Assembly (NCBI GenBank): GCA_965224245.1
Contig: OZ245046.1
Span: 320,001 to 384,000, forward strand
Origin: Candidatus Eiseniibacteriota bacterium
GTDB taxonomy: Bacteria; Eisenbacteria; RBG-16-71-46; CAZAMP01
Direction: 5' to 3'
Length of the DNA: 64,000 nucleotides
Positions 8,423-35,292 of this stretch are shown one piece after another; the first letter of the stretch is position 1; each line of letters opens with the position of its first letter. The translations under genes and the position numbers were made by a program. Below the pieces are notes generated by a model, which saw nothing but the letters and a program-made list of their open reading frames with translations, ran no database searches and had not been told where the DNA came from.

Positions 8423-9760
8423 ATGCGGACGCTGACCCTCGCCGTCTCGATCGCACTGTCTATCCCCCGACCGGGCCTCGCCGCCACGTACACGATCCGC
8501 CCCGATGGAACCGGAGACTATCCCACGATCCAGGACGCGCTGGACGTCGCGATCGACGGCGACGTCGTCGAGCTCACCGACGGTCTGTTCGAAGGGGACG
8601 GGAACCGGGATCTGGATCCGCGCGGCGTCGCGGTCACGATTCGCTCGGTCTCCGGCCACGCATCGGCCTGTGTGATCTACCCCGCGAACGCCGGACGCGG
8701 ATTCCTCTTCGACGACGGCGAGGGGCCCGGCACGCGCGTGGAGCGCGTCACGATCTTCGACGGGTTCGCCAGCCGAATCGGTGGCGGCGTGCTCTGTGAC
8801 GGCGCCTCGCCGACGTTCGTCGGGGTTCGCATCGAGAGCTGCCTGGCATCGGCGCCGAGCAAGAGCACGGCGGGAGTCGGCGGCGCGATCGCCTGCATCA
8901 ACGGCTCGGGCCTCGACTTCAGCGACGGCGAGATCGTGGACAACATCGCACAGGCAACGTGGTCGGCGGACGGGGGCGGCATCTACGCCGATGCCTCGTC
9001 GTCGGTTCGTCTCGTGGACGTCGTCCTTCGCGACAATCGCACCAACACGAGCGACGTCTTCGGGGGAACGGGTGGAGCGTTCCTCCTCGGCCCGGCGGAG
9101 CTCGAGCGCGTCGTCGTCGAGAACAACTACGCGCGTGGGCTCTATCTCGGCGGACCGGCGTCGGTCGCATCGTGTGTCATCCGGGGAAATCCCGGGGGCG
9201 AGGGATCGGCGAGCGCCGTGGCAACCGGGTCCGACGAGGTCACGTTCGTCGACTGCCTCGTCTCGGACAACTCGGGACTCGGCTCCGCCACGGTCTCCGT
9301 CGGGGGGGTCGCTCACTTCGTGGCATGCACGATCGCGTCAAACGGAGACACGTACGTGTGGCGCGGCGGTGGAGGGCTGTTCGTCCGCGACGGCGGGGAC
9401 GTGACCCTGCATCGGACGATCGTCTGGGGCAACTGTGCGCCCGGATACGCCGACGACGTCCACGTCGAGCCCGAAGGTGCCCTGTCGGCGACGTGCTCGG
9501 TGCTCGACCCGGACAGGATCGTGGCGCTCGGGACGCTGGAGCTCGCGTCCGACGTCTTCGCCGCCGATCCACTCTTCTGCGGGCCGAGCGCGTGCGACGT
9601 GCGCGAGCCCTACGGCGACTTCTCCCTGGCCGGGGACTCTCCGTGCCGAGCCGAGGCGAGCCCCTGCGGCGAGCGTATCGGGGCGCTGCCCGTCGAGTGC
9701 GGGAGCTCGACGGCGACCCGTCGGACGTCCTGGTCGGGGCTGAGAGATGGCTTCCGCTGA
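8423..9760 (+). CDS. Secreted right-handed parallel beta-helix protein with C-terminal W-motif tail
   Basis: AGGAG RBS; signal peptide; TIRPDGTGDYPTIQDA; GGG(I/V)xC repeats; DPLFC..SPC..CG.IGA cap; tail TATRRTSWSGLRDGFR. Confidence 0.85.
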   Translation: MRTLTLAVSIALSIPRPGLAATYTIRPDGTGDYPTIQDALDVAIDGDVVELTDGLFEGDGNRDLDPRGVAVTIRSVSGHASACVIYPANAGRGFLFDDGEGPGTRVERVTIFDGFASRIGGGVLCDGASPTFVGVRIESCLASAPSKSTAGVGGAIACINGSGLDFSDGEIVDNIAQATWSADGGGIYADASSSVRLVDVVLRDNRTNTSDVFGGTGGAFLLGPAELERVVVENNYARGLYLGGPASVASCVIRGNPGGEGSASAVATGSDEVTFVDCLVSDNSGLGSATVSVGGVAHFVACTIASNGDTYVWRGGGGLFVRDGGDVTLHRTIVWGNCAPGYADDVHVEPEGALSATCSVLDPDRIVALGTLELASDVFAADPLFCGPSACDVREPYGDFSLAGDSPCRAEASPCGERIGALPVECGSSTATRRTSWSGLRDGFR

Positions 9761-9861
9761 CGCGCGGGCCCGCCGCGCACTCCCAGATGCGGATCGTCGA
9801 CGATGTAGGTCTTGAAGCCCGAACACCGTGGTCGGGAGAACCGTCGTTCCCCGATCCCTCG

Positions 9862-12800
9862 ATGCGAGGTGATGTGCTCTCTCGACGCTCAAACACCCGG
9901 TCGATGCTCGGCGTCGCGCTGGGGTTCGTGGCGATCGTGCCGACCATGGACGCGCACGGGCGGACCTGGCACGTGCTCGCGGATGGCACCGGCGACGCGC
10001 CCACCATTCAGGCGGCGGTCGACTCGGCGCAGGCGGGCGACGAGGTGCTCGTGGGGCCCGGCCGGTACGGATGGCGCGGTCAGGGTGCGAGTGGCACCCA
10101 CATGGTCACCGTGGATGTTCCGATCTGGCTCCACTCCGAGAGTGGTGAAGACCTGACGATCATCGATGGCGAGCTCGAGGGCGGTCTGATCCAGGTCGAG
10201 GCGTCCGGTGGAACCACGACGATCGAGGGCTTCGTGCTGACCCGCGGGCGGTACGGCGGTGCCACGGGGTCGGTGGTCCGAGCGGTCGATTCCCGGGTCG
10301 TGATCCAGGGCAATCTCGTGACGTCGTGCTCGGGTGCCACGGTGTACGCGTCCTCGGGCAGCGTCGACGTCATCGACAATCGCTTCACGGGGAACCCGGG
10401 CTACGTTCGCCTCTCCTTCGGCGAACACACGATCTCCGGCAACGAGTTCGTGGGGGGCACTTTCTGGGTGCTGTTCGCGACGTCGACCGACGACCCGATC
10501 GAGATCGCCGACAACGTCTTCGCCGACAACGTGGCCTCACCGATCGTGTGGATGCGCGGTGATGGGGTCGTCGTCCGCGATTGCGTCTTCCGCGACAACA
10601 CGGGCTCCTCGGGCACCGGGATCGTGCACGCGACCTCGGGAAGTCTCATCGGATGCACGTTCGTGGCGAACGACCTGAACGACGGCCCGGTGATCGACGT
10701 CGTCGATCGCGTCCTGATGGATCGATGCATCGTCGCGAACACGCGCGGCGGGCCCGTCGCCCGGGGTGACGCCGGCACCCGCGTCACCGCGCGGTGCTGC
10801 TGCCTGTACGACAACCCCGCGGGTAGCTGGGTCGGTCCTCTCGACGGCAAGGACGGAACGGACGGCAACTTCACGGGGGTGCCGCGGTTCTGCGATCCGG
10901 ACGGAGCGGATTTCCGACTGGCCTCGAACTCGCCGTGTCTTCCCGGCAATCATCCCACGGGCGTGGCCTGCGGTCAGATCGGCGCGCTCGGACCCGGGTG
11001 CGCCGCGATCGAGCCCACGATCTGGCACGTCACCCCCGATGGCACCGGAGACGTGCCCACGATCGGCGACGCCATGGCGCTGGCGCGCACCGGCGATCAG
11101 ATCTGGCTCGATCCCGGCACGTACACGCGAGCCACGGAAGGCACCGCGGCAGCCGATCTCATCACGATGCGACCCGGCGTCCGGCTGCGGGGTCCGGGAG
11201 GGCCGAGCCTGACTCACATCGATGCCGAGGGAAGCGGGCGTGGCATTCGTGTCGCTCTGGGCGACGAGCTGACCGTGGTCGAAGGAGTCACGTTGCGCGG
11301 TGGCAATGCCGACTCCGGTGGTGGCGCGAGTGTGGAGGCGGGGTATGCCCAGTTCGAGAACGTGGTGTTCGAGGACAACGAGGCCGCCGGCTCCGGCGGC
11401 GCGCTGTCGGCGATCGACGCGTCTGTGGTGAGGTTGGAGAACACGCGTTTCGTGTCGAACCACAGTCTCCAGAGCGGTGGGGCGCTCGCGCTCGACGGGG
11501 GTGTGATCGAGCTCGTGGAGTGCGAGTTCTCGAGCAATTCGGCCGACGTCGACGGCGGCGCAGTGACGAACGAGAGAGGCCGGATCGAGGCACGGGAGAC
11601 GTCATTCGTGTCGAACACGGCCGCATCGCGGGGTGGGGCCGTCTTCCTGCGTCGAGGCGCCGTCTTCGAGGCATGCACGTTCCGGCTGAACGACGCGCTC
11701 GAGGGCGGTGCGATCTCCGCACGCGCGTTGACCGATGATGGGGTCACGATCTCCGGGTGCGACGTCGTGTCGAACACCGCCACCAGAGGGGGTGGCCTGC
11801 ACGTGTACGGGCTATGGTCGGGGCGACTCGACGTCGACGGCACGGTGTTCTTCGAGAACTCGGCCGGACAGGGTGGAGGGCTGTACCTCGCGTGGTGTGA
11901 GGATGCGGTTCAGGTGACCGGTACGACGCTCTACGGAAACACGGCGTCGGATGGGGCGCAGCTCTTCGTGCAGTCGGCATCGCCCGGAGTCTCGACCAGC
12001 ATCATCGCCTACGGGACGGGCGGACCGGCGATCGCTTGCGACGACTCGGGGGCCGGCGCCATGCCGTTCTTCACGTGCACCGATGCCTTCGGCAACGACG
12101 GAGGAGACGAGCTGTGCGGGGAGCTCGGCGCCGGCAACTTCTCGGCGGACCCGGCCTTGTGCGGGACGAGCCCGGATCTCCTGGGGCTGGATGCCGACTC
12201 GCCGTGTCTGGCCGGCAGTCACCCGGACGGGCTCGACTGCGGCCTCATCGGCGCGCGCGATCTCGCGTGCGGGGCTGCGCGCAACTTCCTCGTTCTCGCC
12301 GACGGCACCGGAGAGTTCTCCACGATCCAGGCCGCGATGAACGAGGCCGCGAACCGGGACACGATCACACTGGGTGCCGGTGAGTTCCGGGGCGACGGCA
12401 ACCGCGACGTGCACTTCCTCGGCAAGAACGTCATCGTTCGCTCACTGTCGGACGATCCGGCGTCCTCGATCATCGACTGCGAGGGGACCGACACCGATCC
12501 GCACAGAGGCTTCGTGTTCGATGGCCCGGAGGGACGCGTCGCGAGCGTGCGCGTGGTCACGATCCGCAACGGGAACGTCGTGTCACATGCCGATCCCGAC
12601 GGCGGGGCCATCCGGTGCGCGGCCGGGGCATCCCCGACCCTCGACCGCTGCCGGTTCGAGGCCAACGTTGCGATGTCCGGCGGCGCGATCTCGTCGGTGG
12701 CCGGCGATCCGGTCGTCGACGGCGGAATCTTCGTCGACAACGTCGCCATGGACGACGGTGGTGCGCTCCTCCTGGCTGGCTCCGGGACCGTCCGAGGGTC

Positions 12801-13614
12801 ACGCTTCGAAGGCAACCAGGCCCGACGGGGCGGGGCCGTCCACGCGGCATCCGGAGAGGTGACCGTCGACGGTTGCACGCTGGTCGAGAATGCCGCCAGC
12901 GAGAGTGGGGGAGCGCTCAGCGCGATCGACCAGATCCTGTCGATCCGGTCGTCCACCCTCGTCGCGAACGGGGCGCCGGTCGGTGGCGGTGCGTACGCGG
13001 CGGGAGGCACCCTGGACGTCGAGAACACGATCGTCGCCTTCGCCACCGCCGGGTCGGATCTCGCGTGCGACCCATCGACGACAACGATCGCCGTGGTCTG
13101 TTCGGACTTCTTCGGTAACGCCGGTGGCGACTGGACCGACCCCTGCCTCGTCGATCAGCTGGGAGCGGACGGCAACATCTCGGCCGACCCGCTCTTCTGC
13201 GGGGAGTCGCTCGGAGATCGGCGATTCGCACTGCGCGACGACTCCCCATGCGCCGAGTTTGCCACCGCCTGTGGCCGGATGGGGGCCTGGTCGAGTGGCT
13301 GCGAGATCGTGGGGATCGCGCAGGTGCCGGCGATGCCGCGACGTCTCGTACGCGTGGTGCCGAACCCGACCAACCCATCGGCTCGCTTCGTCTTCCACGC
13401 GGAGCCGGCCGGGGCTCCGGTGACGCTCACGATGTACGATGCGCTCGGACGCCGAGTTCGCGAGGTGACCTCGACGACGTCGAGCGCGGGAGAGACGGCG
13501 CTGTTCTGGGATGGACACGACCGGCACGGGAGATCCCTCCCCAGTGGCGTGTACTTCTTCAGGCTCGAGGTAGCGGGGCGGATCGAGACCGGATCGGTTC
13601 GTCTCGTACGGTGA
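9862..13614 (+). CDS. Secreted protein with three tandem beta-helix modules and C-terminal FlgD-Ig/T9SS-like domain
   Basis: Signal peptide; modules begin at 9967, 11023 and 12286 (xxVxxDGTG(D/E)xxTI); GGA(I/L/V) repeats; PNP..YDALGRRV..WDGHD..SGVYFFRL. Start uncertain (9862-9904). Confidence 0.85.
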   Translation: MRGDVLSRRSNTRSMLGVALGFVAIVPTMDAHGRTWHVLADGTGDAPTIQAAVDSAQAGDEVLVGPGRYGWRGQGASGTHMVTVDVPIWLHSESGEDLTIIDGELEGGLIQVEASGGTTTIEGFVLTRGRYGGATGSVVRAVDSRVVIQGNLVTSCSGATVYASSGSVDVIDNRFTGNPGYVRLSFGEHTISGNEFVGGTFWVLFATSTDDPIEIADNVFADNVASPIVWMRGDGVVVRDCVFRDNTGSSGTGIVHATSGSLIGCTFVANDLNDGPVIDVVDRVLMDRCIVANTRGGPVARGDAGTRVTARCCCLYDNPAGSWVGPLDGKDGTDGNFTGVPRFCDPDGADFRLASNSPCLPGNHPTGVACGQIGALGPGCAAIEPTIWHVTPDGTGDVPTIGDAMALARTGDQIWLDPGTYTRATEGTAAADLITMRPGVRLRGPGGPSLTHIDAEGSGRGIRVALGDELTVVEGVTLRGGNADSGGGASVEAGYAQFENVVFEDNEAAGSGGALSAIDASVVRLENTRFVSNHSLQSGGALALDGGVIELVECEFSSNSADVDGGAVTNERGRIEARETSFVSNTAASRGGAVFLRRGAVFEACTFRLNDALEGGAISARALTDDGVTISGCDVVSNTATRGGGLHVYGLWSGRLDVDGTVFFENSAGQGGGLYLAWCEDAVQVTGTTLYGNTASDGAQLFVQSASPGVSTSIIAYGTGGPAIACDDSGAGAMPFFTCTDAFGNDGGDELCGELGAGNFSADPALCGTSPDLLGLDADSPCLAGSHPDGLDCGLIGARDLACGAARNFLVLADGTGEFSTIQAAMNEAANRDTITLGAGEFRGDGNRDVHFLGKNVIVRSLSDDPASSIIDCEGTDTDPHRGFVFDGPEGRVASVRVVTIRNGNVVSHADPDGGAIRCAAGASPTLDRCRFEANVAMSGGAISSVAGDPVVDGGIFVDNVAMDDGGALLLAGSGTVRGSRFEGNQARRGGAVHAASGEVTVDGCTLVENAASESGGALSAIDQILSIRSSTLVANGAPVGGGAYAAGGTLDVENTIVAFATAGSDLACDPSTTTIAVVCSDFFGNAGGDWTDPCLVDQLGADGNISADPLFCGESLGDRRFALRDDSPCAEFATACGRMGAWSSGCEIVGIAQVPAMPRRLVRVVPNPTNPSARFVFHAEPAGAPVTLTMYDALGRRVREVTSTTSSAGETALFWDGHDRHGRSLPSGVYFFRLEVAGRIETGSVRLVR

Positions 13615-13672
13615 TCTCGAGGAGTGCCGGGGGCGGCGAGCGGCGCACATCAACCGAGCGCGGCCCGTGCGA

Positions 13673-14362
13673 CTAGGGGGATCCTCCGCCGTACAGCGCT
13701 CTCAACTGCCCCCAGGTCGAGGCACGAACCGGCGTGTCGTTCAGCTCGTCGTAGAGCACGATGAACGCGCTCTCGGCCGCGTACCCGAACAGCGACTCGA
13801 CCGGCACCCAACTCGGGAAGCCGAAGGTCGCGGAACGCACCCACGCCTGCTGACCGTTTCCTTGGCCCGCCGACCACGCCCAGATGGGAGGAGAGCACAG
13901 GTTGGCCACGATCGAGACGAAGTACGACGTGCCCGCTAGCCCCTCGAACGTGTCGGAGGCGACGCAGTAAGAGTACGGCTCGCCGGCCGTCTCGTTGAAC
14001 TCGGTGGTCTCGACCGCGTGCACGACGTCTCCCGGAGAGCCGCCGTCGTTCTCGTAGAAGGTCAACGTGAACGAGTTCGGCGTGATGTGGTCTCCGTAGA
14101 CCTCCTCACCCCACCATCCGACGCCGACCAGCCGGGCTCCCGACATGGTGAACACGAAGTCGTCGGCGCATTCGATCCGGGTCGGGTAGCAGACGTCGTC
14201 GTCCGACAGAAGCGGCTCGCCACCGGTGGGCAGCTGAAACCACTCGACGTCGCCCTCACAGTCGAACACGTCCAGCACGTCGGCAGCGGCGGGACCGGGC
14301 ATGCCGACCGCCACGGCCATTCCGCCCAGCCAGACGAGCCGTGCAATCTGTATCGTACGCAT
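13673..14362 (-). CDS. Secreted hypothetical protein with C-terminal W-motif tail
   Basis: Signal peptide MRTIQIARLVWLGGMAVAVGMPGPAAA; beta-rich body (ADDF, WWG, AGTSYFVSI); tail TPVRASTWGQLRALYGG. Confidence 0.8.
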   Translation of the reverse strand: MRTIQIARLVWLGGMAVAVGMPGPAAADVLDVFDCEGDVEWFQLPTGGEPLLSDDDVCYPTRIECADDFVFTMSGARLVGVGWWGEEVYGDHITPNSFTLTFYENDGGSPGDVVHAVETTEFNETAGEPYSYCVASDTFEGLAGTSYFVSIVANLCSPPIWAWSAGQGNGQQAWVRSATFGFPSWVPVESLFGYAAESAFIVLYDELNDTPVRASTWGQLRALYGGGSP

Positions 14363-14578
14363 CTTCTGACCCCACTCGAGAGCGACATGTCGTGGCATTA
14401 TCGCACGACTCGGGCGTGTCGTGCGGCTCACCGACCCGTTACAGTGGCCTGCGGACCAGCGGGTCGGGTCCGGGCGAGCGATTCCTCATCATCGCCCTGC
14501 ATGAAGTCGATCCAGGTGTGAGACGCCGTGAGGTCCGGCCTCGAAGGGGGTTCGGAGCCGTCGGAAGGAGCTCGTTCA

Positions 14579-16477: not shown

Positions 16478-16555
16478 CCTCGTGCTCCCGAGCGGATCGT
16501 GGCGCAGGAGTCGCCACGAGACCGATCCATCGGCGGCGTCAACCGGGCGCGGTCG

Positions 16556-20779: not shown

Positions 20780-21107
20780 GGCTGCTCCTGCTGTGGAAGA
20801 TGGTGGCTTCGCCGGCGCTCCGTCGAGGCTCCTCAGGGAACGTCGACGCGTGACCGGCGATCGCGCCTTCCGCCGTGGCCCACGATGTCGGACGTGATGC
20901 GACCGGCGAAGTGACGAGCCGGCATCGTAGCTCAGATCGAGGATCTCGATCACCCGCGATCGCGTCGGGTGTTGCACGCGCGACACGCCGCGATCGGCGG
21001 GTCCGGGACCCGCGGCCGGGTGCGGCGGGTGTTGGGCTCCGGATCGTCTGGAATCGGTCGTTCTCGGCCAGTTGAACCCCGCGGGCCACGTCGCCTAGAA
21101 TTCGAAC

Positions 21108-21686
21108 ATGCCGCAACCCACGCCGGCCGAGCTCACGGCGATCCTCGGCCAGCTCCGTTCCGACTCCGCCGAACGCGACGAGCTGGTGGCCCAGCTGTTC
21201 GAGCTGGTCTACGACGACCTGAAGCGGATCGCCAGCGGCCTGATGCGCGGCGAACGCGCCGATCACTCCCTGCAGCCGACCGAGCTCGTCCACGAGTCGT
21301 ACTTTCGTCTGTTTCACCAGACCGACGTGGAGTGGGAGTCGCGTGCACACTTCTACGGCATAGCCGCCCAGGCCATGCGCCGGATCCTGGTCGATCACGC
21401 GCGTTCCCGGAACGCCGCCAAGCGGAGCGGCCGCTGGGAGAAGATCACGCTCCACGACGAGATGCTGGCCGGAGAGGCGCCCGCGGGTGAGCTGGACGTG
21501 CTGAAGCTCGACGACGCATTGCGCAAGCTCTTCGCGCTCGACGAGCGCATGGGCCGTGTGGCCGAGCTGCGCATCTTCGGTGGGCTGACGATGGCACAAG
21601 TCGCTCACGTACTCGGCTTCTCGAAGCGCACGGTGGACTACGACTGGAAGACCGCTCGTCCCTGGCTGATGCGCGAGCTGGCCTAG
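21108..21686 (+). CDS. ECF RNA polymerase sigma factor, TIGR02999 (ECF43-like) family
   Basis: LVYDDLKRIA, DHSLQPTELVHESYFRL, AMRRILVDHAR, ELRIFGGLT, DWKTARPWL. Confidence 0.93.
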   Translation: MPQPTPAELTAILGQLRSDSAERDELVAQLFELVYDDLKRIASGLMRGERADHSLQPTELVHESYFRLFHQTDVEWESRAHFYGIAAQAMRRILVDHARSRNAAKRSGRWEKITLHDEMLAGEAPAGELDVLKLDDALRKLFALDERMGRVAELRIFGGLTMAQVAHVLGFSKRTVDYDWKTARPWLMRELA

Positions 21687-21747
21687 GCGTGGCCGGCCGG
21701 CGTGTCCGGGGCTCGAGCCCGTTTCGACTCTGGAAGGGTGATCGCGA

Positions 21748-24390
21748 ATGACGTCCGACCGGCTTCGACGCGCGCGAGCGATCCTCGCGCGGGCACACGA
21801 GGTCGACCCGGCGGAGCGAGAGGCGCTGGTCTCTCGCCTGTCCGAGGGTGACGAGGATCTCCGCCGCGAGGTCATGTCTCTCCTCGCGCACGATGCGCCG
21901 ACCGCCGGGCTGAAGGAGCGGATCGACGTGGACGCCGTGGGCGCGCTCGTCGAGCGCTTGCGGGCGGGTTCGGCTCGAACGCCCGAGCGGATCGGGAGCT
22001 ACCGGGTGATCCGGCTGCTCGGGGAGGGGGGGACCGGAGCGGTCTACGAGGCGGAGCAGCAGAGCCCACGGAGGTCCGTGGCGATCAAGGTGCTCCGTCA
22101 CCGGCTCCTCGACGACTACCGCCGCCAGCTCATCCGGCGCGAGGCGGCGGCGCTCGCACGACTCGATCATCCGAACATCGCCGGCATCATCGAGGCCGAC
22201 GAGGTCGACGGCGAGCCGTTCGTCGTGATGGAGTGTGTCCGGGGCACGCCGCTGTCCCAGTTCCTGAAGGAGCCGGCGGGGCAGGCGCTCTCGGTCCGCC
22301 AGAGGATCGAGCTGTTCCTCCAGATCTGCGATGCCATTGCATACGCCCACCGCCGGGGGGTCATTCACCGCGATCTGAAGCCGTCCAACGTCATCGTCAC
22401 CAGCGAGACCGAGAAGCCGTCGGTCAAGGTGCTGGACTTCGGACTGGCGCGCTTCACCGACGCCGACGTGACGCTGGTCACGATGAGCACCGAGACCGGG
22501 CGCGTGCAAGGGACGCTCGCATACATGAGCCCCGAGCAGGCACGTGGAGATCCGAACCAGATCGATCTTCGATCCGACATCTACTCCCTGGGTGCGATCC
22601 TCTACGAGATGCTCACCGGAGAGCGGCCGAGCCAGCTGTCCGATCGCTCGCTCGCGGAGGCGGTCCGGATCATCTGCGAGGACGATCCGCCGTCGTTGAG
22701 GACGCTGGATCGGACCCTCGACACCGACCTCGACACGATCGCGATGAAGGCGCTCGAGAAGCCTCCGGACCGCCGGTATCAGACCGTGACCGCTCTCGCC
22801 GGCGATCTCACGAGATGGCGCCAACATGAGCCCATCACGGCCAGGCCCCCGACGCTCGCGTACCAGCTGGGCAAGCTGATGCGACGACATCGCCCGGTGT
22901 TCGCGCTGGGAGCGGCGTTGCTGGTGGCCGTGATCGCGTCGGCGGTGGTCACCTCCGTGCTCCTGTACCAGCAGACGCAGGAGCGCGAGCGGGCGGAGCG
23001 GGAGGTCGTGCGTGCCACCCGCGAGGCGCGAAAGGCCGACCAGATCAACGCGTTCCTGCGCGACATGCTGGTGGCGGTGGATCCGCGACGCGAGGGGGCG
23101 GACGTAACGGTGAGAGAGGTCCTCGACCAGGCCGCGCGCGATCTCGTGGGGGCGTTTCCGGACGAGCCCGAGGTCCGGGCGGCGCTTCACAACAGTCTGG
23201 GGCAGGCCTACTACGGCGTGGCGGTGCTCGATTCGGCCCGCACCCACCTCACCCGCTCGATCGAGATTCAGCGTGAGATGCGCGGGGCGGCGGACCCGGC
23301 CGTGGTCAGGGGCCTGGCGGCCCTCGCCACCGTGGCCAGCCGCGAGGCCCGGAATGCGGAGGCGGAGTCCCTCCTGGTGGCGGCGCTGGCCATCGATCCC
23401 GAGAACATGCCCCGCGACGAGACGTTCGAGCTCCAGCAGGAGCTGGCGGTGGTGATGCACGGCCAGGGGAAGACCGCCGAGGCCGCCGCTCAGCTCCGGA
23501 GCGCGATCGACACGTATCGCGCCGCCGGCGGCGCATACAGCGAGAGTCTGCTCCAGGCCCTGACGAACCTCGCCGCGCTGGCCCAGATCCGAGGCGACTA
23601 CGGCGAGGCGGAGACCGCCACGCGCGACGTCCTGGCCCTGGCCAGAGAGCATCACGGCGACGACCATCCGCTGGTGTTCGCCAACCTCTCGAACCTCGCG
23701 CAGCTGCTCTCGCGCCAGCGGCGAGAGGAGGCCGGCGAGGTCTTCGCAGAGGCGCTCGCGCTCGGTGAAGAGGTCTACGGCGCCGAACATCCCGAGGTCT
23801 CGACCTGTCGGAACAACTACGCCGGCTACCTGAACCGCAGCGGTCGCCATGCCGAGGCAGAGGTCCTGGTCCGGCGGTCGATGGAGATCGATCGTCGAAC
23901 GCTGGGGCCGGATCACCCGTCCATCTCGTCGGGCCTTCAGCAGCTCGGGTTCGCGTTGCGGTCGCAACATCGATTTGCCGCGGCCGAGTCGGTGTACGTC
24001 GAATCGGTCAGGATCCGTCGGGCCGCCTACGGGCCCGACCATCCCTCGGTCGCGTACGCGCTCTACGGACTCGGGACGAGCGTGCTGGAGCAAGAACGCC
24101 CCGCCGACGCGATCGAGCCGCTCGAGGAGTGCCTTCGCATCCGACGCGCGCACCATCCGGGTACGACGACCAACGTGGCCCTGCCGGCGTTCCTGGTGGG
24201 CGTCTGCATGGGAGCGCGTGGGTGCAGCGCAGTGGCCGAGTCGCTGATCGTGACGAACGCGGCCGTCATCCTGGATGCCGACCAGACCTCGGACCAGAGC
24301 CGCCGGGACACGCTCCAGCGGGCGATCGACTACTTCGATCGGTGCGACCCGAAGCGGGCCGAGTCTTACCGTGCGCAGCTGACGGAGTGA
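21748..24390 (+). CDS. Membrane Ser/Thr kinase with N-terminal helical extension and C-terminal TPR repeats
   Basis: LGEGGTGAV, HRDLKPSN, DFG, YMSPEQ; TM VFALGAALLVAVIASAVVTSVLLY; G.(D/E)HP-type TPR repeats; immediately downstream of the ECF gene. Confidence 0.93.
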   Translation: MTSDRLRRARAILARAHEVDPAEREALVSRLSEGDEDLRREVMSLLAHDAPTAGLKERIDVDAVGALVERLRAGSARTPERIGSYRVIRLLGEGGTGAVYEAEQQSPRRSVAIKVLRHRLLDDYRRQLIRREAAALARLDHPNIAGIIEADEVDGEPFVVMECVRGTPLSQFLKEPAGQALSVRQRIELFLQICDAIAYAHRRGVIHRDLKPSNVIVTSETEKPSVKVLDFGLARFTDADVTLVTMSTETGRVQGTLAYMSPEQARGDPNQIDLRSDIYSLGAILYEMLTGERPSQLSDRSLAEAVRIICEDDPPSLRTLDRTLDTDLDTIAMKALEKPPDRRYQTVTALAGDLTRWRQHEPITARPPTLAYQLGKLMRRHRPVFALGAALLVAVIASAVVTSVLLYQQTQERERAEREVVRATREARKADQINAFLRDMLVAVDPRREGADVTVREVLDQAARDLVGAFPDEPEVRAALHNSLGQAYYGVAVLDSARTHLTRSIEIQREMRGAADPAVVRGLAALATVASREARNAEAESLLVAALAIDPENMPRDETFELQQELAVVMHGQGKTAEAAAQLRSAIDTYRAAGGAYSESLLQALTNLAALAQIRGDYGEAETATRDVLALAREHHGDDHPLVFANLSNLAQLLSRQRREEAGEVFAEALALGEEVYGAEHPEVSTCRNNYAGYLNRSGRHAEAEVLVRRSMEIDRRTLGPDHPSISSGLQQLGFALRSQHRFAAAESVYVESVRIRRAAYGPDHPSVAYALYGLGTSVLEQERPADAIEPLEECLRIRRAHHPGTTTNVALPAFLVGVCMGARGCSAVAESLIVTNAAVILDADQTSDQSRRDTLQRAIDYFDRCDPKRAESYRAQLTE

Positions 24391-27428: not shown

Positions 27429-30377
27429 TCATCCCGTGCGGAGATCGCGAAGCCGGCGCCGGGCATCCTCGATCTCGGCGATCCGCGGATCTCCGCCGTC
27501 CACGATGGAGAGGAACTGCACGAGCTGCGCGACGGCGTCCTCGGGCCGTCCGACGTTCTGGTAGCAGATGCCCAGGTGATAGTAGGCCCGGGCCGAGTCC
27601 AGGCCACACTGCAGTCTGTCTCCGTCATACCAGGTGACGGTCGTCTCCAGCAGCCCGATCGCCTTCTCCCACTGGCGAGTCTCCACGTAGCAGCGGCCGA
27701 GCGGGAGCCGGGTCCAGATCCAGTTGGCGCTCTGCGCTCTCTCCAGGTAGGAGATGGCCAGGTCCAGCTCGCCCCGGGTCATCTCCAGGTTGCCGCGAGC
27801 GACGTAGTAGTACGCCTGCAGGACGCTCGTCGAGCTGTCCTCGCGAGCGATGTACGGTTCGAGGTATCGATGGCTCTCCTCGACGGCTCCCACCCTGGCC
27901 AGCACGCTGGCGGCGTCGATGAGATCGAAGTCGTTCTCGGGTGGCGCGATCTCGAGCGCCCGATGCACGGCGGCCACGGCGCCGCTCCGATCGCCGATCT
28001 CTTGGAGGAGGAACCCACGCTGCTCGTGCCGAGCCGCCATGGTCTGGGAATGGACGCCTTCCATCTGGTCTACGGTCAGGGCCGCATCGATCTGACGCAA
28101 CGCTTCTTCGACCCGGCCCCGATAGGCCAGCAGCCCGATCAGCCCGGTGCGACCCCTTGCACGGGTCTCCGCGTCGGGACTCGCGAACAGATGGCGGAAC
28201 TGGCTCTCGGCCTTCTCGTAGTCGCCGTGAAACGCGTACATGTCGCCCAGCTTCGCCGCCGACTGGTAGTCGGCGAAGTCCGGCTTCATCTCGACCGCCT
28301 TCGCGTAGGACGCGATCGCCTCCTCGAGCCGGCCGTGCCGCGCGAAGATGTCGCCACGCGAGTCGTACGGGTTCGGCTCGTCCGGTGCCAGCTCGATGTA
28401 CGTGTCGAGCTCGTGGATCGCGCGATCCAGATCGCCCACCGCGCTGTAGGCGTACGCCAGCTCGTTGTGCACGGTCTTGTCGAGCGGATCGAGTGCCAGG
28501 AGCCTCTCCGCGTACTCGATCGCCTTCTCGGGCGGTCCCAGAATGCCGTACGCTTGCCGGAGACCCTCCAGGGCGTGCTTGTCGTCGGGGTACGTCTCCA
28601 GCACACGCTCCAGGGACGCGATGAATCGATCGGGGTCCGACGCCAGCCACGCCTCGGCGCCTTCGAGGTACATCTGCTCCCGGGTCGACGCCCGGTCGGC
28701 ATGTCGGACGGCCTGTGCGAGGTACTTCCGATCTCCTCGAGAACCGCCCAACCCTCCCAGCCGATAGGCGGCCATGGCGAACGTGGAGTCGATGGCGAGC
28801 GCCTGGAGGTACGCGTCCCGGGCCTCCTGGTTGAAGAACTTGCGCTCGTTCTCGATCCCCTCGAGATAGAAGCGGTAGGCATCCTCGGAGTTCGTGGACA
28901 GGCTCGCCACCGAGGGGGTCGTCTCGGCCGCCGACTCTTCCGTACCACCGAGGTCGTCCAGCGTCTCCTCGGTGATCCGGTCGACGAGCACGAAGATCGA
29001 CTCGCCCGGCACGCCGGTCGTCCGCTGAGACGCCACGACGTTGCCCGTCGCCACCTCCACGATCTGAGAGGTGACGACGTAGGCCGGCTCGGCCTGGAGA
29101 ATCGTCCCCTGCATCATCAGCCGGGCGTCGGTCCGCCTGGCCACGTCGGTGGCCGTGTCGCGGTCGATCCGGCGTTCGCCTTCACGCCCCAGCTGCTTCA
29201 AGACGTCGTAGAGGCGCTGGCTGGACACGACCCTCATGTTCGCCGCTTCCGAGAGCCCCGTGATCAGGAGCTCGGACACGATTTCCCCGTGACGCTTCGG
29301 ATCCTCCGGCTCCGCGAGGTTCTCGAAGTACATGATGGCGAGCGTGTTCGTGTCGGCCCCGGCCCCCGGTTCGGGTGTGACCCGGAGCTTCCACGGATCG
29401 AGGATCAGGAACGCCGCGAGCGCCGCGACGGCGACCAGCGCGCCGATCCCGACGCGCGCGTCGACGCGTGGCCTGCCGGGACCGACGGCCCCCACCGACC
29501 CGGTCGACGAGCCCACCTCCACCTGGAGCGACTCCAGCATGTTGGCCACGTCGAGGGCGCTCTGGAGGCGTCTTCGCGGGTCCTTCTCCAGACAGTGCTG
29601 GATGATGCGACCGAGCTGATTGGGGAGCTCGCTCCGGATCGCGGTCACGCTCGTCGGCGTGTCCTTGAGGACGGACGAGAGGCGGGACAGGCTCGTCTCG
29701 CCGTGAAACGGCTGACGACCGGTGGCCATCTCGTAGAGCAGGACGCCCAGCGAGAAGATGTCGGAGCGGGCGTCGACCGGCTTTCCCTCCGCCTGCTCGG
29801 GCGACATGTAGGCGACGGTGCCCAGGACCGTGCCGGCCGCCGTGTCGGGCGAGTCGTCCAGCACCGTCTCCGCCTCCGCCACCTCGTCGTCCGTTCGATC
29901 GAGGAGCTTGGCCAGGCCGAAGTCCAGCACCTTCACGCGGCCCTCGGCATCGACCATCACGTTGGCCGGCTTGAGGTCGCGGTGCGTGATGCCTGCGGCG
30001 TGAGCGCCGTGCACCGCCTCGGCCAGGGGGATGGCCAGATGGAAGAACCGAGAGAGCGGGAAGCCCCCCGACGGGAGCAGCTCGGAGATCGTCTTGCCCT
30101 CGACCAGCTCCATGGTCAGAAAGACGCGCCCGTCGGCCTCCTCGACCGAGTGAAGGGTCACGATGTTCGGGTGCGTGAGGGACGCGACGGCCCGGGCCTC
30201 GCGTTCGAAGCGGCGGCGGCGCTCCTCGTCGTGCGCCACGTCGGCGGGCAGGAGCTTGAGGGCGACGTCACGTCCCAGGCGCGTGTCGCGCGCGCGATAG
30301 ACCTCGCCCATCCCGCCGGCGCCGAGCGACGCGAGGATCGTGTAGCGTCCGAGCTGCGATCCGATCGTCAGTGACAT
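27429..30377 (-). CDS. Membrane Ser/Thr kinase with TolB-N/FlgO-like domain and TPR repeats
   Basis: [65 protein letters not shown]; TPRs. Confidence 0.92.
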
Positions 30378-30760
30378 CCGCCGCAGTCTACCCGAAGACC
30401 CCGGTGCCTCGATACCGCAGTTTTTTGGTCTCGAGCGCGGCCCCAGATGATGCAGACGCATCATGGAACCGCCGGATTCCCCATGGTCCAATGCTCCTGC
30501 GCCGGTGGCCGCATCATCGCTCCGGGCGGCGCCCGGTAGCGCATCTGATTGATCGCCTCGATATCGAATTGCCGCCATGACCCGATGGATCCCGTTCGGA
30601 GTGGCGGCTCGTGCGACACCCGACAACACCCAGCGCCTTGTGAGTCGCGTCGCCGTGGCCGCCCGCATGTCAACCCATCGCAGCTCGCCATGTGCTGCCC
30701 GAGCACCTCCCCCGGTGATCCCTGCGCCCGATCTTCGGTTACCACCACAATCGTGAGGTC

Positions 30761-33457
30761 GTGATGAAGAAATCCGTACCGAAGCTGACCATCACGGTGG
30801 CACTGGTGTCAGCTCTCTCTCTGATGACTGCGTCGTCCTCGGCCGCGGGCGATCGGCCAGCGGGCCTTCCGGCGACGACGACGGTCGACGTTCCCCAGGT
30901 TTCGGCTCCTGCCGGTGACGAGCTCGGTGTCCGATGTGCGCGCGTCGTGAGGGCCGAGCTCATCGGCGATACCGTCGCACGGTTCGGGGACGACGTCGCG
31001 GTGACCCGTCCGAGACAGTCCTCCAGCACTCCAGCGATGGCCATTCGCGCGAACGGCGACATCTTCGTCGTCACGGACGATCTGAGTGCCAACGCCCTCG
31101 ACATCTTCCGATCCACGAACGGCGGAAGCACGTGGATCTACCACGCGAGCCTCGTGGGCGACGCGCATCTCCTGACGCCATCGGTGGCCGTCGGCGAGGG
31201 CGTGGCGAACCGGCTGCTGGTGGCGTATCACTACGGAAAAGGTACGCCGAGCTCCTCGATCATCGTGTACTGGGAGGACCTCGACACGGGGGCGTACGGC
31301 TCGAGCGTGGTCATGACCGCTCCCGCACCGTACGATCCTCAGGATCCGGCGATCTGCGTCGACAGCCCCGAGTACGCCGACTGGTACGCCTATCTCACGT
31401 ACTCCTGGGACGCACCGATCCCGGCGCCCGACGGTGTCTACATCACCCAGTTCGTACGGTCGGTCGACCTGGGCGCCTCGTGGGTCGACCTCCGCACGTT
31501 GCAGTACAGTCCGGGTGACGTCCGATCCTCCGACATCGACTTCGCCGGGGAGACACTCGTGGCCGTCTATGCCCACGAGCGCCCCTCGGGCTCCGACCCG
31601 GACGTCTCGGCCCGGATCAGTCTCGACTACGGCGATACCTGGGCAGATCCGATCCCGCTCGCGGGCACGACGGCGGCCGAGGCCGGACCCCGCGTGGCGG
31701 TCGGCAACGCGGGAAGCCACGTGGTGGTCGCCTACACGGCGGAGATCACGGCGGAGGACATCGACATTCAGCAGTACTCCAGCACCGACGGTGGAGCGAG
31801 CTGGACGTGGAGCACGTGGCCGCACGTGGAGCTTCCCGAGTTCAACTGCGACGTGGTCGAGGACCCACGCACCGGCGGATTCCACGGGTCCTTCTGGCGC
31901 CAGAACTCAGGTGCGAACGGGTTCACGATGCACCTGCGGAGCGACGAGGTCGACCCGACGACGTGGCTGGATCTGAGCAACGTCTGCGATACCGGGCAGG
32001 CCGTCCCCTGGGGGAGACCGGTCATCGCGGTCGATCCGACCTCGGAGCGGTTGAACGAAGCATGCATCGCCTGGGGTGACTTCCGCGAGGACCCGATGCG
32101 GCACGTCTACTTCGACGGCCCCGGTGTCGACGTGGAGGAGTGTACGATCGCTCCGTTCGAGGACCTCACGCTCGGGGCCTCGTACGTCTCGGGCGACGTG
32201 TTCTCGTCATCGGGGATCGACATCCGCGTCGATGACTTCTACTACGTCATCGGCCCCTGCGGCGGGCCCATGACGAGCGGTGACGTCCGGGTCATCGACG
32301 ACGTCGGCTCCTGTCGTCCCGGGAAAGAGCTCTGGTTGGACAACGTCACGTTGATCTTCGACTTTCATGAGCCCCTGTATCAGGTGACGATCCCGTTCGG
32401 CGAGTACGGTGGGGTCGTGGATCTCGGCGTCAATGGAGACTGCCGCGTCGTCGCCGACTTCAGAGACCTCGACCAGCAGATCGTCGGCGGCTGCCTCGTG
32501 ACCGTGGTCGACCTGTCCACGGCCTTCTGCGGGGAGATCGCGATCGAGGGGCCGGTCGAGCAGCTCGTCGTCGGCGGACAGGAGCTCGCCATCGACGACG
32601 TTCAGTACTGTCGCCGCGTCTGCGAGAACCTGACCATCACGATGGACTTCGAGTCGCTTCCGCTGGGGCTGGAGCTCCCGTACGGCAGCCAGTTCCAGCA
32701 CGGCTACTCGGAGCTCACGCCGCCCGGGGTCGGCTTTGCGGTCGAGACCACGATGGACACGTACTTCTGGAGTGCCGGCTGCACGAATCCCTACACCGGT
32801 GGAGTCGCCATCGTGCAGGAGGGCGGCGGTGCGTGCGCGGGAGGACATGAGCTTCGCGTCGACAACGTCAACCTGCGCTTCGATTTCGATGGACCCGTGG
32901 AACGACTCAGCATCCAGTACGGGGAGTATGGCGGCAGCGTGAACCTCCAGCTCAACGGCGTCTGCCTCACGCTTGGAGACTTCCGCGAGGCCATCGGACC
33001 CTATCCCGACGCCTACGTCTTTGCCGAGCTCTATCCCGGCATGGGCGGCTGCGGGCGCGTCGTCGTGAACGGGAAGATCGACGACTTCGCGATCGGAGGG
33101 CAGGAGCTGGTGATCGACTCGATCGAAGCCTGCCTCCATCCGGTCGTGGACGTGCCGGAGACCGGTCCGGTCTCGAGCGTGCCGCGAGTGTGGAACGCAC
33201 CCAACCCGTTCCGCAGGGCGACGACGATCCACTTCGCCCTTCGCTCGATCGAAGGCGTGTCGGTGGACGTCTTCGACGTCGTCGGTCGCCGCGTCCGAAC
33301 GCTGCTTCACGGCGACGCGGTCCCTGCCGAGGGGCGGGGTGAGGTGACGTGGGACGCACGGGACGAGGTGGGGCGTCGCGTTCCACCGGGAGTCTACTTC
33401 TACCGGGTGAGATCCGGTTCAACCGTCCTCACGCGGCACATCGTGCTCGTGGAGTAG
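30761..33457 (+). CDS. Secreted protein: Asp-box propeller + two tandem Cys-rich beta domains + FlgD-Ig/T9SS-like CTD
   Basis: Signal peptide; STNGGSTW, SVDLGASW, SLDYGDTW, STDGGASW; duplicated ~160-aa domain; PNPF..WDARD..PGVYFYR. Confidence 0.85.
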   Translation: MMKKSVPKLTITVALVSALSLMTASSSAAGDRPAGLPATTTVDVPQVSAPAGDELGVRCARVVRAELIGDTVARFGDDVAVTRPRQSSSTPAMAIRANGDIFVVTDDLSANALDIFRSTNGGSTWIYHASLVGDAHLLTPSVAVGEGVANRLLVAYHYGKGTPSSSIIVYWEDLDTGAYGSSVVMTAPAPYDPQDPAICVDSPEYADWYAYLTYSWDAPIPAPDGVYITQFVRSVDLGASWVDLRTLQYSPGDVRSSDIDFAGETLVAVYAHERPSGSDPDVSARISLDYGDTWADPIPLAGTTAAEAGPRVAVGNAGSHVVVAYTAEITAEDIDIQQYSSTDGGASWTWSTWPHVELPEFNCDVVEDPRTGGFHGSFWRQNSGANGFTMHLRSDEVDPTTWLDLSNVCDTGQAVPWGRPVIAVDPTSERLNEACIAWGDFREDPMRHVYFDGPGVDVEECTIAPFEDLTLGASYVSGDVFSSSGIDIRVDDFYYVIGPCGGPMTSGDVRVIDDVGSCRPGKELWLDNVTLIFDFHEPLYQVTIPFGEYGGVVDLGVNGDCRVVADFRDLDQQIVGGCLVTVVDLSTAFCGEIAIEGPVEQLVVGGQELAIDDVQYCRRVCENLTITMDFESLPLGLELPYGSQFQHGYSELTPPGVGFAVETTMDTYFWSAGCTNPYTGGVAIVQEGGGACAGGHELRVDNVNLRFDFDGPVERLSIQYGEYGGSVNLQLNGVCLTLGDFREAIGPYPDAYVFAELYPGMGGCGRVVVNGKIDDFAIGGQELVIDSIEACLHPVVDVPETGPVSSVPRVWNAPNPFRRATTIHFALRSIEGVSVDVFDVVGRRVRTLLHGDAVPAEGRGEVTWDARDEVGRRVPPGVYFYRVRSGSTVLTRHIVLVE
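32156..33133 (+). repeat. Two tandem ~160-aa intragenic domain repeats
   Basis: FEDL..ELWLDNV..FDF..GEYGG.V.L..NG.C..GGQELAIDD matches FESL..ELRVDNV..FDF..GEYGG.V.L..NG.C..GGQELVIDS. Confidence 0.85.
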
Positions 33458-33465
33458 CTGATGAC

Positions 33466-33506
33466 GGCGCCACCGCCTGCTCTCCACTCGGACGGGCGGT
33501 GGCGCC
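33466..33506 (+). terminator. GC-rich hairpin after the 30761-33457 gene
   Basis: ggcgccaccgcctg..cgggcggtggcgcc, 14-bp stem just after the stop codon. Confidence 0.5.
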
Positions 33507-33707
33507 TCGGAGGCGGCTCCCCGGACGTGTGCCCTCTCCGGAGTCGTCACCTTCTACCACCAGGCCCGACGCTGTTACCATGGTCGTCGATCGTATCGGA
33601 CGAGCGGCGACCTCGAACCCGGATCGAGACCGAACGCACGGAGCGGCGGCGCATCGTACGGACGTGACACCCGAGCCTGGAACCTCATCCTTCGTACGGA
33701 GGCTGCC

Positions 33708-34532
33708 ATGCGACGTCGAGTCACAGGAGGTGCCGTGCTTTCCGTCGGGCTGGCGGGCGCAGTCGCCGGCATTGCCGCCGCGACCGATCTCCTCGAGATC
33801 GACATCGTCCGGTTCGACGCGTCGGGGACGATCCTCCACGAGATCTACTTCGAGGCCAACCGGGACGGGGCGACGACGTGCGACCTCGTCACGCCGCTGG
33901 GTACGTACGTCTGCACCGACGTCGGGGGTCGCTTCCGGGCCGAGCCGGCGTTCTTCGACGAGCATGTGGATCTGACCTTCGCCGAGGTGCAGAGCATCGT
34001 GTCGTCGCCGTGGACCGTGACCTGGGACGCGGGCGCCGGTCAGACGGTCGCGACCCTCGAGCTCGGGCCCATTACGATCGAGGACGTTCCGGCCATTCCC
34101 AGCCTCACCGCGCCGGTGGATGGTGAGGTCATCGAGGTGCCGGCCGACCCGAACCCTCCGGTCGTCACGTGGATGTACGACGGGATCTCCGACCCGTGCG
34201 AGGCGCAGCCGGACCACGTCGTGGTGATCTTCACGGACCAGGAGTCGATCTGGGACGCCACGACCGTGATCGACTCGGGCGAGCTCGCCTGCACGGAGAC
34301 GTCCTGGGAGCCCTCCGAGGCGCTTCCGGAGGGCATCTGGTTCACGGCGGTCGTGAACGCGCTGTCGTTCCGGGACGTGCCGGACGGGATCACGGTGGTC
34401 GAGGGGGACTGGCCGCTCGAGAACACGGACTGGCTGCAGCTGTACGGGGCGGACCGTGTCCACAACGAGGTGATCCCGGTGGAGCGGAGCAGCTGGAGCG
34501 AGATCAAGGCGCGCCATCGCGATCCGAGGTGA
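33708..34532 (+). CDS. Secreted hypothetical protein with C-terminal W-motif tail
   Basis: GGAGG RBS; signal peptide MRRRVTGGAVLSVGLAGAVAGIAAA; acidic beta-rich body; tail IPVERSSWSEIKARHR. Confidence 0.8.
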   Translation: MRRRVTGGAVLSVGLAGAVAGIAAATDLLEIDIVRFDASGTILHEIYFEANRDGATTCDLVTPLGTYVCTDVGGRFRAEPAFFDEHVDLTFAEVQSIVSSPWTVTWDAGAGQTVATLELGPITIEDVPAIPSLTAPVDGEVIEVPADPNPPVVTWMYDGISDPCEAQPDHVVVIFTDQESIWDATTVIDSGELACTETSWEPSEALPEGIWFTAVVNALSFRDVPDGITVVEGDWPLENTDWLQLYGADRVHNEVIPVERSSWSEIKARHRDPR

Positions 34533-34563
34533 GCGCTCGCATCGCTCGACAGGTCCCGCGATC

Positions 34564-35292
34564 TCAGAACGTCCGATACACGGACTTGACGCGCGCCCAG
34601 CTGGCCGGCGCGATCGGGGTCTCGCAGTCCTCGACCCAGACCTCGACGTCGTCGATCGCGAACGTGAACGCGTTCGTGAACGACGGCTCGTACTGGAAGT
34701 ACGTGACGTCACCGGTGACGGGCGTCGTGGGCAGGTCCTCCGCCACCACGACCCCGTCGATCAGCAACGTCTGGGTCTGGCCGGCCGTGTCGACGTGCCA
34801 CTCGAAGCAGTTGGCCTGGTCGAGGGTCCAGGAGCCGACCGTCTCCTCCGCGCCCGACGTGAGGATCGTGATCGACGGACCTCGATAGTTGACCGAGCCG
34901 TAGATGCGGCCTTGAGGTCCCCGGAGAACGAAGAACGACGGCGGGATGACGGTGCGTGCCACCGAGCACCACTTCACCACGAAGCGATCGCAGGGGTAGG
35001 CGGTCTCGGGGAAATGGAAGCCCGCCAGGAGCGACCCGGCGCCCCCTTCCTCGCGCTGCATCTCCAGCGGCTGATCGGAGAGCGATCCCGACGACGCGAC
35101 CACCGTGTACGTGCCGGGTGCCGTGGGCGAGACGGTCATGGAGTCCCCATCGGGGGGACCGGGGAGCGAGAGGTCGGGGCTCTCGCCGACGACGTCGGCG
35201 TTGAAGTCCGCCCTGGCGACGAGTGTGAGCTGAGCGGCCGCAGACGCGGGGATCAGCAAGGCGAGCGCGGCCGACAGAGCGAGGCGACTCAT
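34564..35292 (-). CDS. Secreted hypothetical (jelly-roll-like) protein with C-terminal W-motif tail
   Basis: GGAGG RBS; signal peptide MSRLALSAALALLIPASAAA; ends FAIDDVEV..TPIAPASWARVKSVYRTF. Confidence 0.82.
   Translation of the reverse strand: MSRLALSAALALLIPASAAAQLTLVARADFNADVVGESPDLSLPGPPDGDSMTVSPTAPGTYTVVASSGSLSDQPLEMQREEGGAGSLLAGFHFPETAYPCDRFVVKWCSVARTVIPPSFFVLRGPQGRIYGSVNYRGPSITILTSGAEETVGSWTLDQANCFEWHVDTAGQTQTLLIDGVVVAEDLPTTPVTGDVTYFQYEPSFTNAFTFAIDDVEVWVEDCETPIAPASWARVKSVYRTF

Follow-up and report, generated by a model that had tools for sequence, protein, structure and literature searches.

A Lineage-Wide C-Terminal Tag on Exported Proteins of Candidatus Eisenbacteria and Its Possible Role as a Sorting or Docking Signal

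Introduction

C-terminal sorting signals have repeatedly led to new envelope machines, among them sortase, exosortase, rhombosortase, the secretion system of type IX (T9SS), and the myxosortases. Other short peptides, such as the targeting peptides of encapsulins and microcompartments and the dockerin–cohesin pairs, dock unrelated cargo, and MinD and PBP5 carry C-terminal amphipathic helices that target them to membranes; the cytoplasmic membrane-targeting sequences of the MinD type hold proteins to the membrane. Here, we describe a tag of about 16 residues, centered on a tryptophan, at the C-terminus of exported proteins of Candidatus Eisenbacteria. Four copies were noticed in a 64,000-nucleotide stretch of DNA, hereafter the window (contig OZ245046.1, positions 320,001 to 384,000, forward strand), of a Candidatus Eiseniibacteriota genome. 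The tag is real, lineage-wide, and undescribed, and it probably serves as a sorting or docking signal that is read by a partner in the cell envelope.

Results

The Tag Terminates 115 Open Reading Frames of the Source Genome

The source genome of the window, G000, comprises 6,936,481 bases in 27 contigs, with 67–70% GC. Translation of the four open reading frames (ORFs) in question reproduced exactly, in letters and in coordinates, the four tails that the initial annotation had aligned. A local hidden Markov model (HMM) of the tail, made from 103 ungapped seeds, gave 120 matches of at least 15 bits in G000, of which 113 lay within 15 residues of a stop codon, in keeping with the strictly C-terminal position proposed at the outset; the few high-scoring internal matches look like read-through into open high-GC frames. 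With a threshold of at least 13 bits, a distance of at most 15 residues from the stop, and an ORF length of at least 100 aa, the tag terminates 115 ORFs of the 6.9 Mb genome. The count is slightly inflated, as a few tagged proteins are found both on contig C1 and on the small contigs C4, C5, and C19, with no difference in the tail; these twins are probably assembly duplicates or recent duplications. The genome-wide consensus is [TV]-P-[VTI]-x3-[ST]-W-[GSAT]-x-[ILV]-[KR]-[SA]-x-[YFH]-[R].

Furthermore, a loose core pattern, W[GSA].[LIVM][KR]..[YFHW], has 187 six-frame matches in G000, and 120 of them end 0–13 residues before a stop, a distance at which only 15.5% of six-frame positions lie (binomial p = 7.5e-51). 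The serine that precedes the tryptophan is encoded by AGC in 48 tails of the 115-tail set and by TCG or TCC in 36, and the mean pairwise nucleotide identity of the tails is 0.54. This use of two codon families, together with the low nucleotide identity, indicates selection on the peptide and not the spread of a DNA repeat. The tagged genes are dispersed along the chromosome; in 12 adjacent pairs, fewer than 500 bases separate the two genes, and a convergent pair in the window is one of these.

The Four Window Proteins

All four window proteins start with a signal-peptide-like N-terminus and have unrelated bodies, as originally reported, and their tails match no model in Pfam or NCBIfam. P0002 (database form P0005, 229 aa) is an exported, lectin-like jelly-roll protein encoded on the minus strand at 13673..14362 (ORF 13673-14431). 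It ends in TPVRASTWGQLRALYGGGSP, and its tag (13676-13735, minus strand; 24.1 bits with the tail HMM) is followed by GGGSP. The body scored 14.5 bits with the choice-of-anchor R model (NF041539), below the curated cut-off of 30, and a fold search gave weak matches to lectin-like jelly rolls (best E 7e-4). Two of its homologues pass that cut-off (see below), so P0002 is a divergent relative of the choice-of-anchor R domain.

P0003, encoded on the plus strand at 33708..34532, is an exported protein of no known family; its body forms a singleton cluster, with nothing credible in Pfam or NCBIfam. It ends in IPVERSSWSEIKARHRDPR, with the tag at 34473-34529 on the plus strand (21.8 bits). P0004 is encoded on the minus strand at 34564..35292, so that its gene and that of P0003 converge with 38 bases between them. 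It is an exported protein with a weak concanavalin-like match (14.9 bits with Laminin_G_3, the cut-off of which is 27.6) and ends in TPIAPASWARVKSVYRTF, with the tag at 34567-34620 on the minus strand (26.8 bits).

The fourth protein, P0001, is an exported beta-helix protein (Pfam Beta_helix, 34.5 bits) encoded on the plus strand at 8423..9760 (ORF 8189/8423-9760), read from the methionine at 8423 and ending in TATRRTSWSGLRDGFR. Its tail (9710-9757, plus strand) is a weak form of the tag without the proline: T-A-T stands in the place at which 113 of the 115 tails have a proline, and it scores only 8.2 bits because that residue is missing. The same beta-helix family has 16 paralogues with canonical tails after the same cysteine-containing cap, and P0001 is a degenerate member of this tagged family. 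Thus, of the four tails that had been grouped together, those of P0002, P0003, and P0004 stand as strong members, whereas that of P0001 is weak.

Anatomy and Predicted Structure of the Tag

Counting from the tryptophan as position 0, which is invariant (115/115), the tails have T62/V36 at −7, P113 at −6, V63/T28/I14 at −5, and S88/T26 at −1 (114/115). On the other side, +1 is always small (G52/S37/A19/T7; 115/115), +3 is I59/L34/V20, +4 is always basic (K99/R16; 115/115), +5 is mostly small (S45/A35/G8; 88/115), +7 is Y87/F13/H11 (111/115), and +8 is R54 or the stop (19). The aromatic position ends 19 tails, is followed by one residue in 44, and is followed by as many as 15 in the rest; this variation speaks against a reader that recognizes the free carboxylate. 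The last residue is arginine in 59 of the 115 tails, compared with 21.5% in the background. As the initial annotation stated, there is no hydrophobic or transmembrane span: only 8–9 residues follow the tryptophan, with lysine or arginine in their middle.

AlphaFold2 modeled P0005, from a 56-sequence alignment, with a mean pLDDT of 87.9 (body 89–98), a coil at residues 206–216, and a helix at 217–224, from the tryptophan to the tyrosine, at a pLDDT of 70–77. In an unrelated cohesin-like family (20 paralogues), the body reached 91–98 and was likewise followed by a coil and then by a helix at 204–210 that starts at the tryptophan, at a pLDDT of 51–64. In these models, the tail would be an extension outside the fold and a nascent helix at most. 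The helical hydrophobic moment of the tails was 0.31, compared with 0.33 ± 0.16 for shuffled tails, and 1.7% of the tails exceeded the 90th percentile of the shuffles. Therefore, of the amphipathic helix suggested earlier, the helix from W to Y is supported by low-confidence models in two unrelated families, whereas the amphipathicity is not borne out. On a helix, as judged from the position counts, W, I, and Y would share one narrow face with K/R beside it, and +1 and +5 would form a small-xxx-small stripe, leaving only +2 and +6 free. This pattern of conservation is more in keeping with a peptide that a partner grips than with a helix that seeks lipids in a generic way.

Proteins That Carry the Tag

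A signal-peptide-like start was detected in 93 of the 115 tagged ORFs, compared with 1479 of 4125 predicted genes (odds ratio 7.6, p 2e-22), by a crude, home-made heuristic; several of the 22 tagged ORFs that it missed show a signal peptide by eye. There was no bias toward lipoproteins or twin-arginine export, with lipobox-like starts in 4/93 and twin-arginine-like starts in 6/93. The bodies, with a median length of 220 aa, fall into 52 BLAST clusters (sizes 23, 16, 15, 5, 3, 3, 2, 2, 2, and 2, plus 42 singletons). These results extend to the whole genome two features first read from four proteins, namely the association of the tail with Sec signal peptides and its occurrence on unrelated bodies, of which there are at least 52 families.

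When 51 cluster representatives were compared with Pfam, 13 matched at E <= 0.01 (10 of them above the curated cut-off) and 38 had no match. The families matched were Beta_helix, multihaem cytochrome c, VWA, AhpC-TSA, Calx-beta, Omp28, X25/CBM20, LTD, PD40, and DUF6923, with weaker matches to GEVED, PKD, and CBM96. Beta_helix, Calx-beta, LTD, VWA, Omp28, X25/CBM20, PD40, and the multihaem cytochrome are of surface or extracellular types. The largest tagged family numbers 23 paralogues in the tag set and 33 profile matches in G000; Pfam has no match for it, and its fold is cohesin-like by Foldseek (best E 8.8e-5). An example member lies at L321:1-633, which is C1:5429365-5429997 of G000 (alignment A3). 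Cohesin-like modules were also seen at the N-termini of large T9SS-domain proteins.

The Tag Alternates with Two Established Sorting Signals

A T9SS-type C-terminal domain (CTD) ends 467 ORFs of G000 according to a local HMM, and TIGR04183 gave at least 150 matches over its cut-off, with 150 of 415 candidates scored. None of the 467 ORFs is among the 115 tagged ones. Even when tail matches of at least 13 bits were accepted anywhere in the protein (128 ORFs), none fell in the 475 ORFs with a T9SS-type CTD, and the mutual exclusion that had been noticed in the window thus holds across the genome. The two sets also differ in length, with a median ORF of 772 aa for the T9SS-domain proteins versus 300 aa for the tagged ones. 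Their bodies are partly shared: 66 of the 115 tagged bodies (13 of the 52 clusters) have homologues among the T9SS-domain proteins, and at the junctions, the same last strand or cysteine cap is followed at once by the tag in one protein and by a linker with a T9SS domain in the other. The two signals themselves are not similar by hhalign (probability 0.13%).

G000 also has three exosortase matches, seven PEP-CTERM proteins, and a porU–porV pair, so three C-terminal systems coexist in this genome. The pair (L310:1186-2670 and the adjacent ORF; C1:2570183-2576105 of G000) consists of a PorV/PorQ-family protein (185 bits, cut-off 90) and a neighboring ORF of 1424 aa, the last 388 residues of which fit the model of the PorU sortase (E 2.3e-39). 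Of the two full exosortase matches, one, at L300 (C1:1609464-1610231), lies in an 899-aa open frame that may be a fusion, and the other, at C1:4810915, has a PEP-CTERM gene directly upstream.

The family of P0002 joins all three signals on one domain. A homologue search with P0002 returned P0002 itself only, and a full HMMER search with P0005 returned 202 proteins at E <= 1e-3. When the C-termini of the best 150 of these were classed by local rules, the tag closed 66 of them, a T9SS-type domain 7, and a PEP-CTERM-like end 32; the remaining 45 had other ends, many of which are visibly PEP-CTERM-like, truncated, or variants with phenylalanine for tryptophan. With NCBIfam, 26 of 55 homologues reached the cut-off of TIGR02595, 4 that of TIGR04183, and 1 that of PEPxxWA-CTERM. 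P0053 (33.2 bits) and P0094 (30.8 bits) passed the choice-of-anchor R cut-off of 30 bits, and others scored 16–28 bits, many of them just short of it. On this domain, the tag thus behaves as a third "choice of anchor" beside PEP-CTERM and the T9SS domain. Some metagenomic homologues of P0002 (P0006, P0008, P0013, P0017, and P0028) have a cysteine-rich insert before the tail and phenylalanine in place of tryptophan.

Spread across the Phylum

A degenerate DNA pattern for T-P-x5-W-G-x-I-K-x2-Y-R-stop matched more than 122 stretches in species-representative genomes. Of the 80 matches listed, 40 were titled Candidatus Eisenbacteria or Eiseniibacteriota, 37 simply "bacterium", and 3 bore other names; of the latter, one record labelled Udaeobacter has 5 tags and 20 T9SS-domain matches, and the other two have one match each. 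Thus, the matches listed fall mostly on Candidatus Eisenbacteria records, which fits the mention in the initial annotation of similar tails in lineages related to the Fibrobacterota–Chlorobiota–Bacteroidota (FCB) group. A profile scan, which the initial annotation had proposed, showed the tag to recur in relatives: with a 24-tail alignment (A1), 41 of 41 relatives matched at E <= 1, with 3 to 134 matches per genome. In a wider sample of the phylum (151 genomes of at least 85% completeness, including the unpublished G054, with up to 57 candidates scored per genome), 141 genomes from 18 families matched at E <= 1e-3. Five other FCB genomes, which doubled as a false-positive control (Pedobacter and metagenome-assembled genomes labelled Gemmatimonadetes, Zixiibacteriota, Ignavibacteria, and Calditrichales; 18.4 Mb in all), gave no tags at E <= 0.01.

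All ten genomes without a match belong to one family, f8, in which 19 of 29 genomes match. The genomes of f8 (2.1–3.5 Mb; e.g., L236, L239, L246, and L247) have 0–5 tag matches each, of which 0–3 are credible, and keep 35–86 T9SS-domain matches and 6–9 PorV-like barrels per genome. The surviving f8 tags are genuine, and some of them are on a conserved Lamin-tail-domain protein encoded beside a papain-like peptidase gene. In four of five f8 genomes, no match to the body family of P0002 was found, and the single weak match overlaps a tail match; f8 has thus lost the proteins instead of swapping their tails. Family f8 is the sole depleted family of the phylum, and the presence of the tag is patchy within genera. 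Together with the residual genuine tags, this makes phylogenetic profiling inside the phylum unusable.

Search for a Reader

What might read the tag? The initial annotation had suggested phylogenetic profiling for a partner; no gene family that we tested tracks the tag. Exosortase was considered as a reader and rejected: it is present in 28 of 41 relatives, including the tag-poor G029, G035, and G040, and was not found in the tag-rich G005 (115 tags, 99% complete), G012 (104), G032 (84), and G014 (77). The cohesin-like family fared no better as a general receptor, being present in 17 of 41 relatives and not found in the tag-rich G005, G012, G032, G026, and G010; in the cohesin-like model, the tail is not docked in cis (pLDDT 51–64). 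PorV-like barrels (4–11 per genome) and secretins occur in all 41 relatives and, offering no contrast, are uninformative; furthermore, the copy number of the PorV-like barrels does not follow the number of tags. The secretin of G000 that we inspected is PilQ of a pilMNOPQ cluster and not part of a type II system. Secretin matches in eight genomes, including G000 (L309:11163-13469), contain one in-frame TAG, possibly a gene end overrun by the model.

The 456 neighbors of 88 tail genes included 88 T9SS-domain proteins and 15 kinase-like ORFs. Large kinase-like ORFs lie at 21099-24390 and 35234-39694 of the window and at other loci of the genome; those of the window adjoin short ORFs with sigma-factor-like ends. 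The 44 tag-rich genomes that were also tested for T9SS domains were all positive (41 of 41 relatives plus G041, G044, and G045). A T9SS-linked reading therefore stays open, and nothing ties the tag specifically to the T9SS.

Discussion

We consider the tag a sorting or docking signal that is read by an envelope partner, and we give this reading a probability of roughly 60%. The strongest argument for it is that, on one and the same domain, the tag fills the slot of two accepted surface-sorting signals, as expected of a sorting or anchoring module. The motif, its strict position, its association with signal peptides, its exclusion of the T9SS domain, its exchange with known anchors, and its spread across the phylum are shown by the data; we infer a function in sorting or docking, a reader that is a protein, and a destination at the cell surface. 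The tails would be copies of a portable C-terminal address tag of about 16 residues found in Candidatus Eisenbacteria. After Sec export and folding of the body, a flexible linker that begins with the proline would expose a short segment of the form S/T-W-small-x-I/L/V-K/R-small-x-Y/F, often followed by arginine. A conserved partner in the envelope, most probably a protein, would bind this segment and either pass its small cargo through the outer membrane or retain it at the cell surface. Thus, the tag would take the role of a PEP-CTERM signal or a T9SS domain with no membrane-spanning segment and independently of exosortase.

Several results weigh against this interpretation. No reader was found, no gene family tested follows the tag, and no machinery-like family recurs among the neighbors of the tail genes. 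The near loss of the tag in f8, despite the T9SS domains kept there, means that it is dispensable in some lineages. In addition, the signal-peptide heuristic has a high background rate of 36%, and some of the tagged proteins (a TlpA-like redoxin, a multihaem cytochrome, and a TolB-like propeller) could equally be periplasmic.

A more specific form of the sorting reading is tentative, and we would sooner bet against it than for it. According to this proposal, the tag would define a third Sec-linked sorting route in Eisenbacteria, without a transmembrane segment or a sortase, in which a helix-forming peptide with a small-xxx-small face is recognized by a dedicated receptor in the outer membrane or at the surface. 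The receptor would be distinct both from exosortase and from the canonical means by which the T9SS recognizes Ig-like domains, and the route would serve about 2–3% of the proteome.

Could the tail instead anchor proteins directly to the membrane or to lipopolysaccharide (LPS), with W...I...Y and K/R acting as a short interfacial helix and with no protein reader at all? The composition of the tag (W, I/L/V, and Y/F with K/R), the excess of terminal arginine, and the helix that AlphaFold2 placed over W to Y in two families would suit such an anchor, and so would the failure to find a reader gene. On the other hand, the helix is of low confidence and the hydrophobic moment is that of shuffled tails. 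Moreover, the proline at −6, the S/T at −1, and the small residues at +1 and +5 are far stricter than generic lipid binding needs, and the tag is confined to one lineage, with no match in the five other FCB genomes, though lipid and LPS chemistry is widespread. We therefore regard a direct anchor as unlikely.

We give similarly small credence to a minimal T9SS signal, which would join the CTDs of types A and B as a third kind and be read by a T9SS component or by a specialized shuttle. The genomic setting is favorable: every tag-rich genome tested carries many T9SS domains, G000 itself has the porU–porV pair besides its 467 domain ORFs, and on homologous bodies, the tag stands in for the T9SS domain. 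A precedent may exist as well, as a 2025 paper (PMC12618676) reports that in Flavobacterium, different T9SS signals have specialized shuttle proteins. However, the profiles of tag and domain are dissimilar, and tag numbers bear no relation to the copy number of the PorV-like barrels. Family f8 keeps its T9SS domains and barrels with next to no credible tags, and the five other FCB genomes, which were not tested for T9SS, lack the tag.

The remaining explanations fare worse. There is a slim chance that the tag does not sort at all and is a stability element, a protease handle, a degradation tag, or a modification site on exported proteins, since its extreme C-terminal position and strict motif would also suit a periplasmic protease or modifying enzyme, and no machinery was found. 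However, it substitutes at the same junction for two bona fide sorting signals, the arginine found at +4 in 16 tails is unsuited to lysine-specific modification, and a degradation tag on 115 proteins and in 18 families of the phylum is hard to rationalize. Very improbable is a degenerate PEP-CTERM signal processed by exosortase. Both signals start with a proline-containing signature a few residues past the last strand and often end in arginine, PEP-CTERM replaces the tag in homologues, and G000 has exosortase genes; yet the tag has no transmembrane segment, G000 has seven PEP-CTERM proteins of its own, and the phyletic pattern already contradicts this reading, with exosortase present in tag-poor genomes and not found in four tag-rich ones. 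Finally, almost no weight falls to the idea that the tag arose by chance or from the composition of a high-GC genome, or that it is a DNA repeat located at gene ends: spurious ORFs are plentiful at 69% GC and some low-scoring matches lie in Arg/Ser-rich wrong frames, but the enrichment before stops, the synonymous and six-fold codon variation, the clean foreign genomes, and the conservation in 141 of 151 phylum genomes already refute it.

The tag marks about 115 proteins per genome in a widespread, uncultured soil phylum, and it shares no architecture with the known signals. A name for it would help to annotate exported proteins that now count as "hypothetical", of which each genome has hundreds, would group the carriers, mostly small lectin-, cohesin-, and adhesin-like modules, as one functional set, and would provide a defined query for a receptor hunt by phylogenetic profiling or structure-based screening.

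Comparison with Known Systems

The tag corresponds to no characterized sorting model: when 24 tails were compared with Pfam and NCBIfam, no model matched even at E <= 10. Nor was a description of the motif found in the literature, as judged by listings and the beginnings of abstracts, with supplements outside this scope. Criteria for small C-terminal sorting domains are outlined in passages of a preprint (Haft 2023, 10.1101/2023.06.07.544157). Like the PEP-CTERM class (TIGR02595, with LPXTG, GlyGly-CTERM, MYXO-CTERM, and PGF-CTERM), the tag lies at the extreme C-terminus in many copies per genome, has a signature with at least three near-invariant residues (P 113/115, S/T 114/115, and W 115/115), and is found on unrelated bodies (52 clusters) with signal peptides (93/115 by the heuristic); PEP-CTERM even takes its place in homologues. 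Unlike that class, it has no hydrophobic membrane-spanning segment, and it is not co-distributed with exosortase (28/41 relatives), rhombosortase and CPBP being outside that test. Its basic end places it less clearly: a single arginine is at +8 in 54/115 and arginine is the last residue in 59/115, against 21.5% in the background, yet there are one or two basic residues at most and no cluster.

The type A CTD of the T9SS (TIGR04183/PF18962, including the FlgD-Ig-like form) likewise serves as a signal at the C-terminus of Sec-exported proteins, whether surface-bound or secreted; it shares genomes with the tag and is interchangeable with it on homologous bodies. However, the CTD has about 80 residues (the Ig-like domain about 70–100), whereas the tag has about 16 and no Ig-like fold, is borne by small proteins (median ORF 300 vs. 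772 aa), and shows no profile similarity to it. T9SS genes are present in G000, namely the PorU-like gene beside PorV/PorQ and the TIGR04183 matches, and are not specific to the tag.

The helices of MinD and PBP5 resemble the tag in having about nine residues, with aromatic, aliphatic, and K/R residues, at the end of the protein and in being predicted helical; the tag differs in its strict conservation, in a moment not above that of shuffles, and in its extracytoplasmic location. The known docking peptides work in the cytoplasm or, in Gram-positive bacteria, in cellulosomes, and no shell or scaffold was found in G000. The largest tagged family is cohesin-like (Foldseek E 8.8e-5), but it occurs in 17 of 41 relatives and is not a general receptor. 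In outline, nevertheless, the tag is built as docking peptides are, as a short terminal extension outside the fold that is shared by unrelated cargo and presumably serves one receptor.

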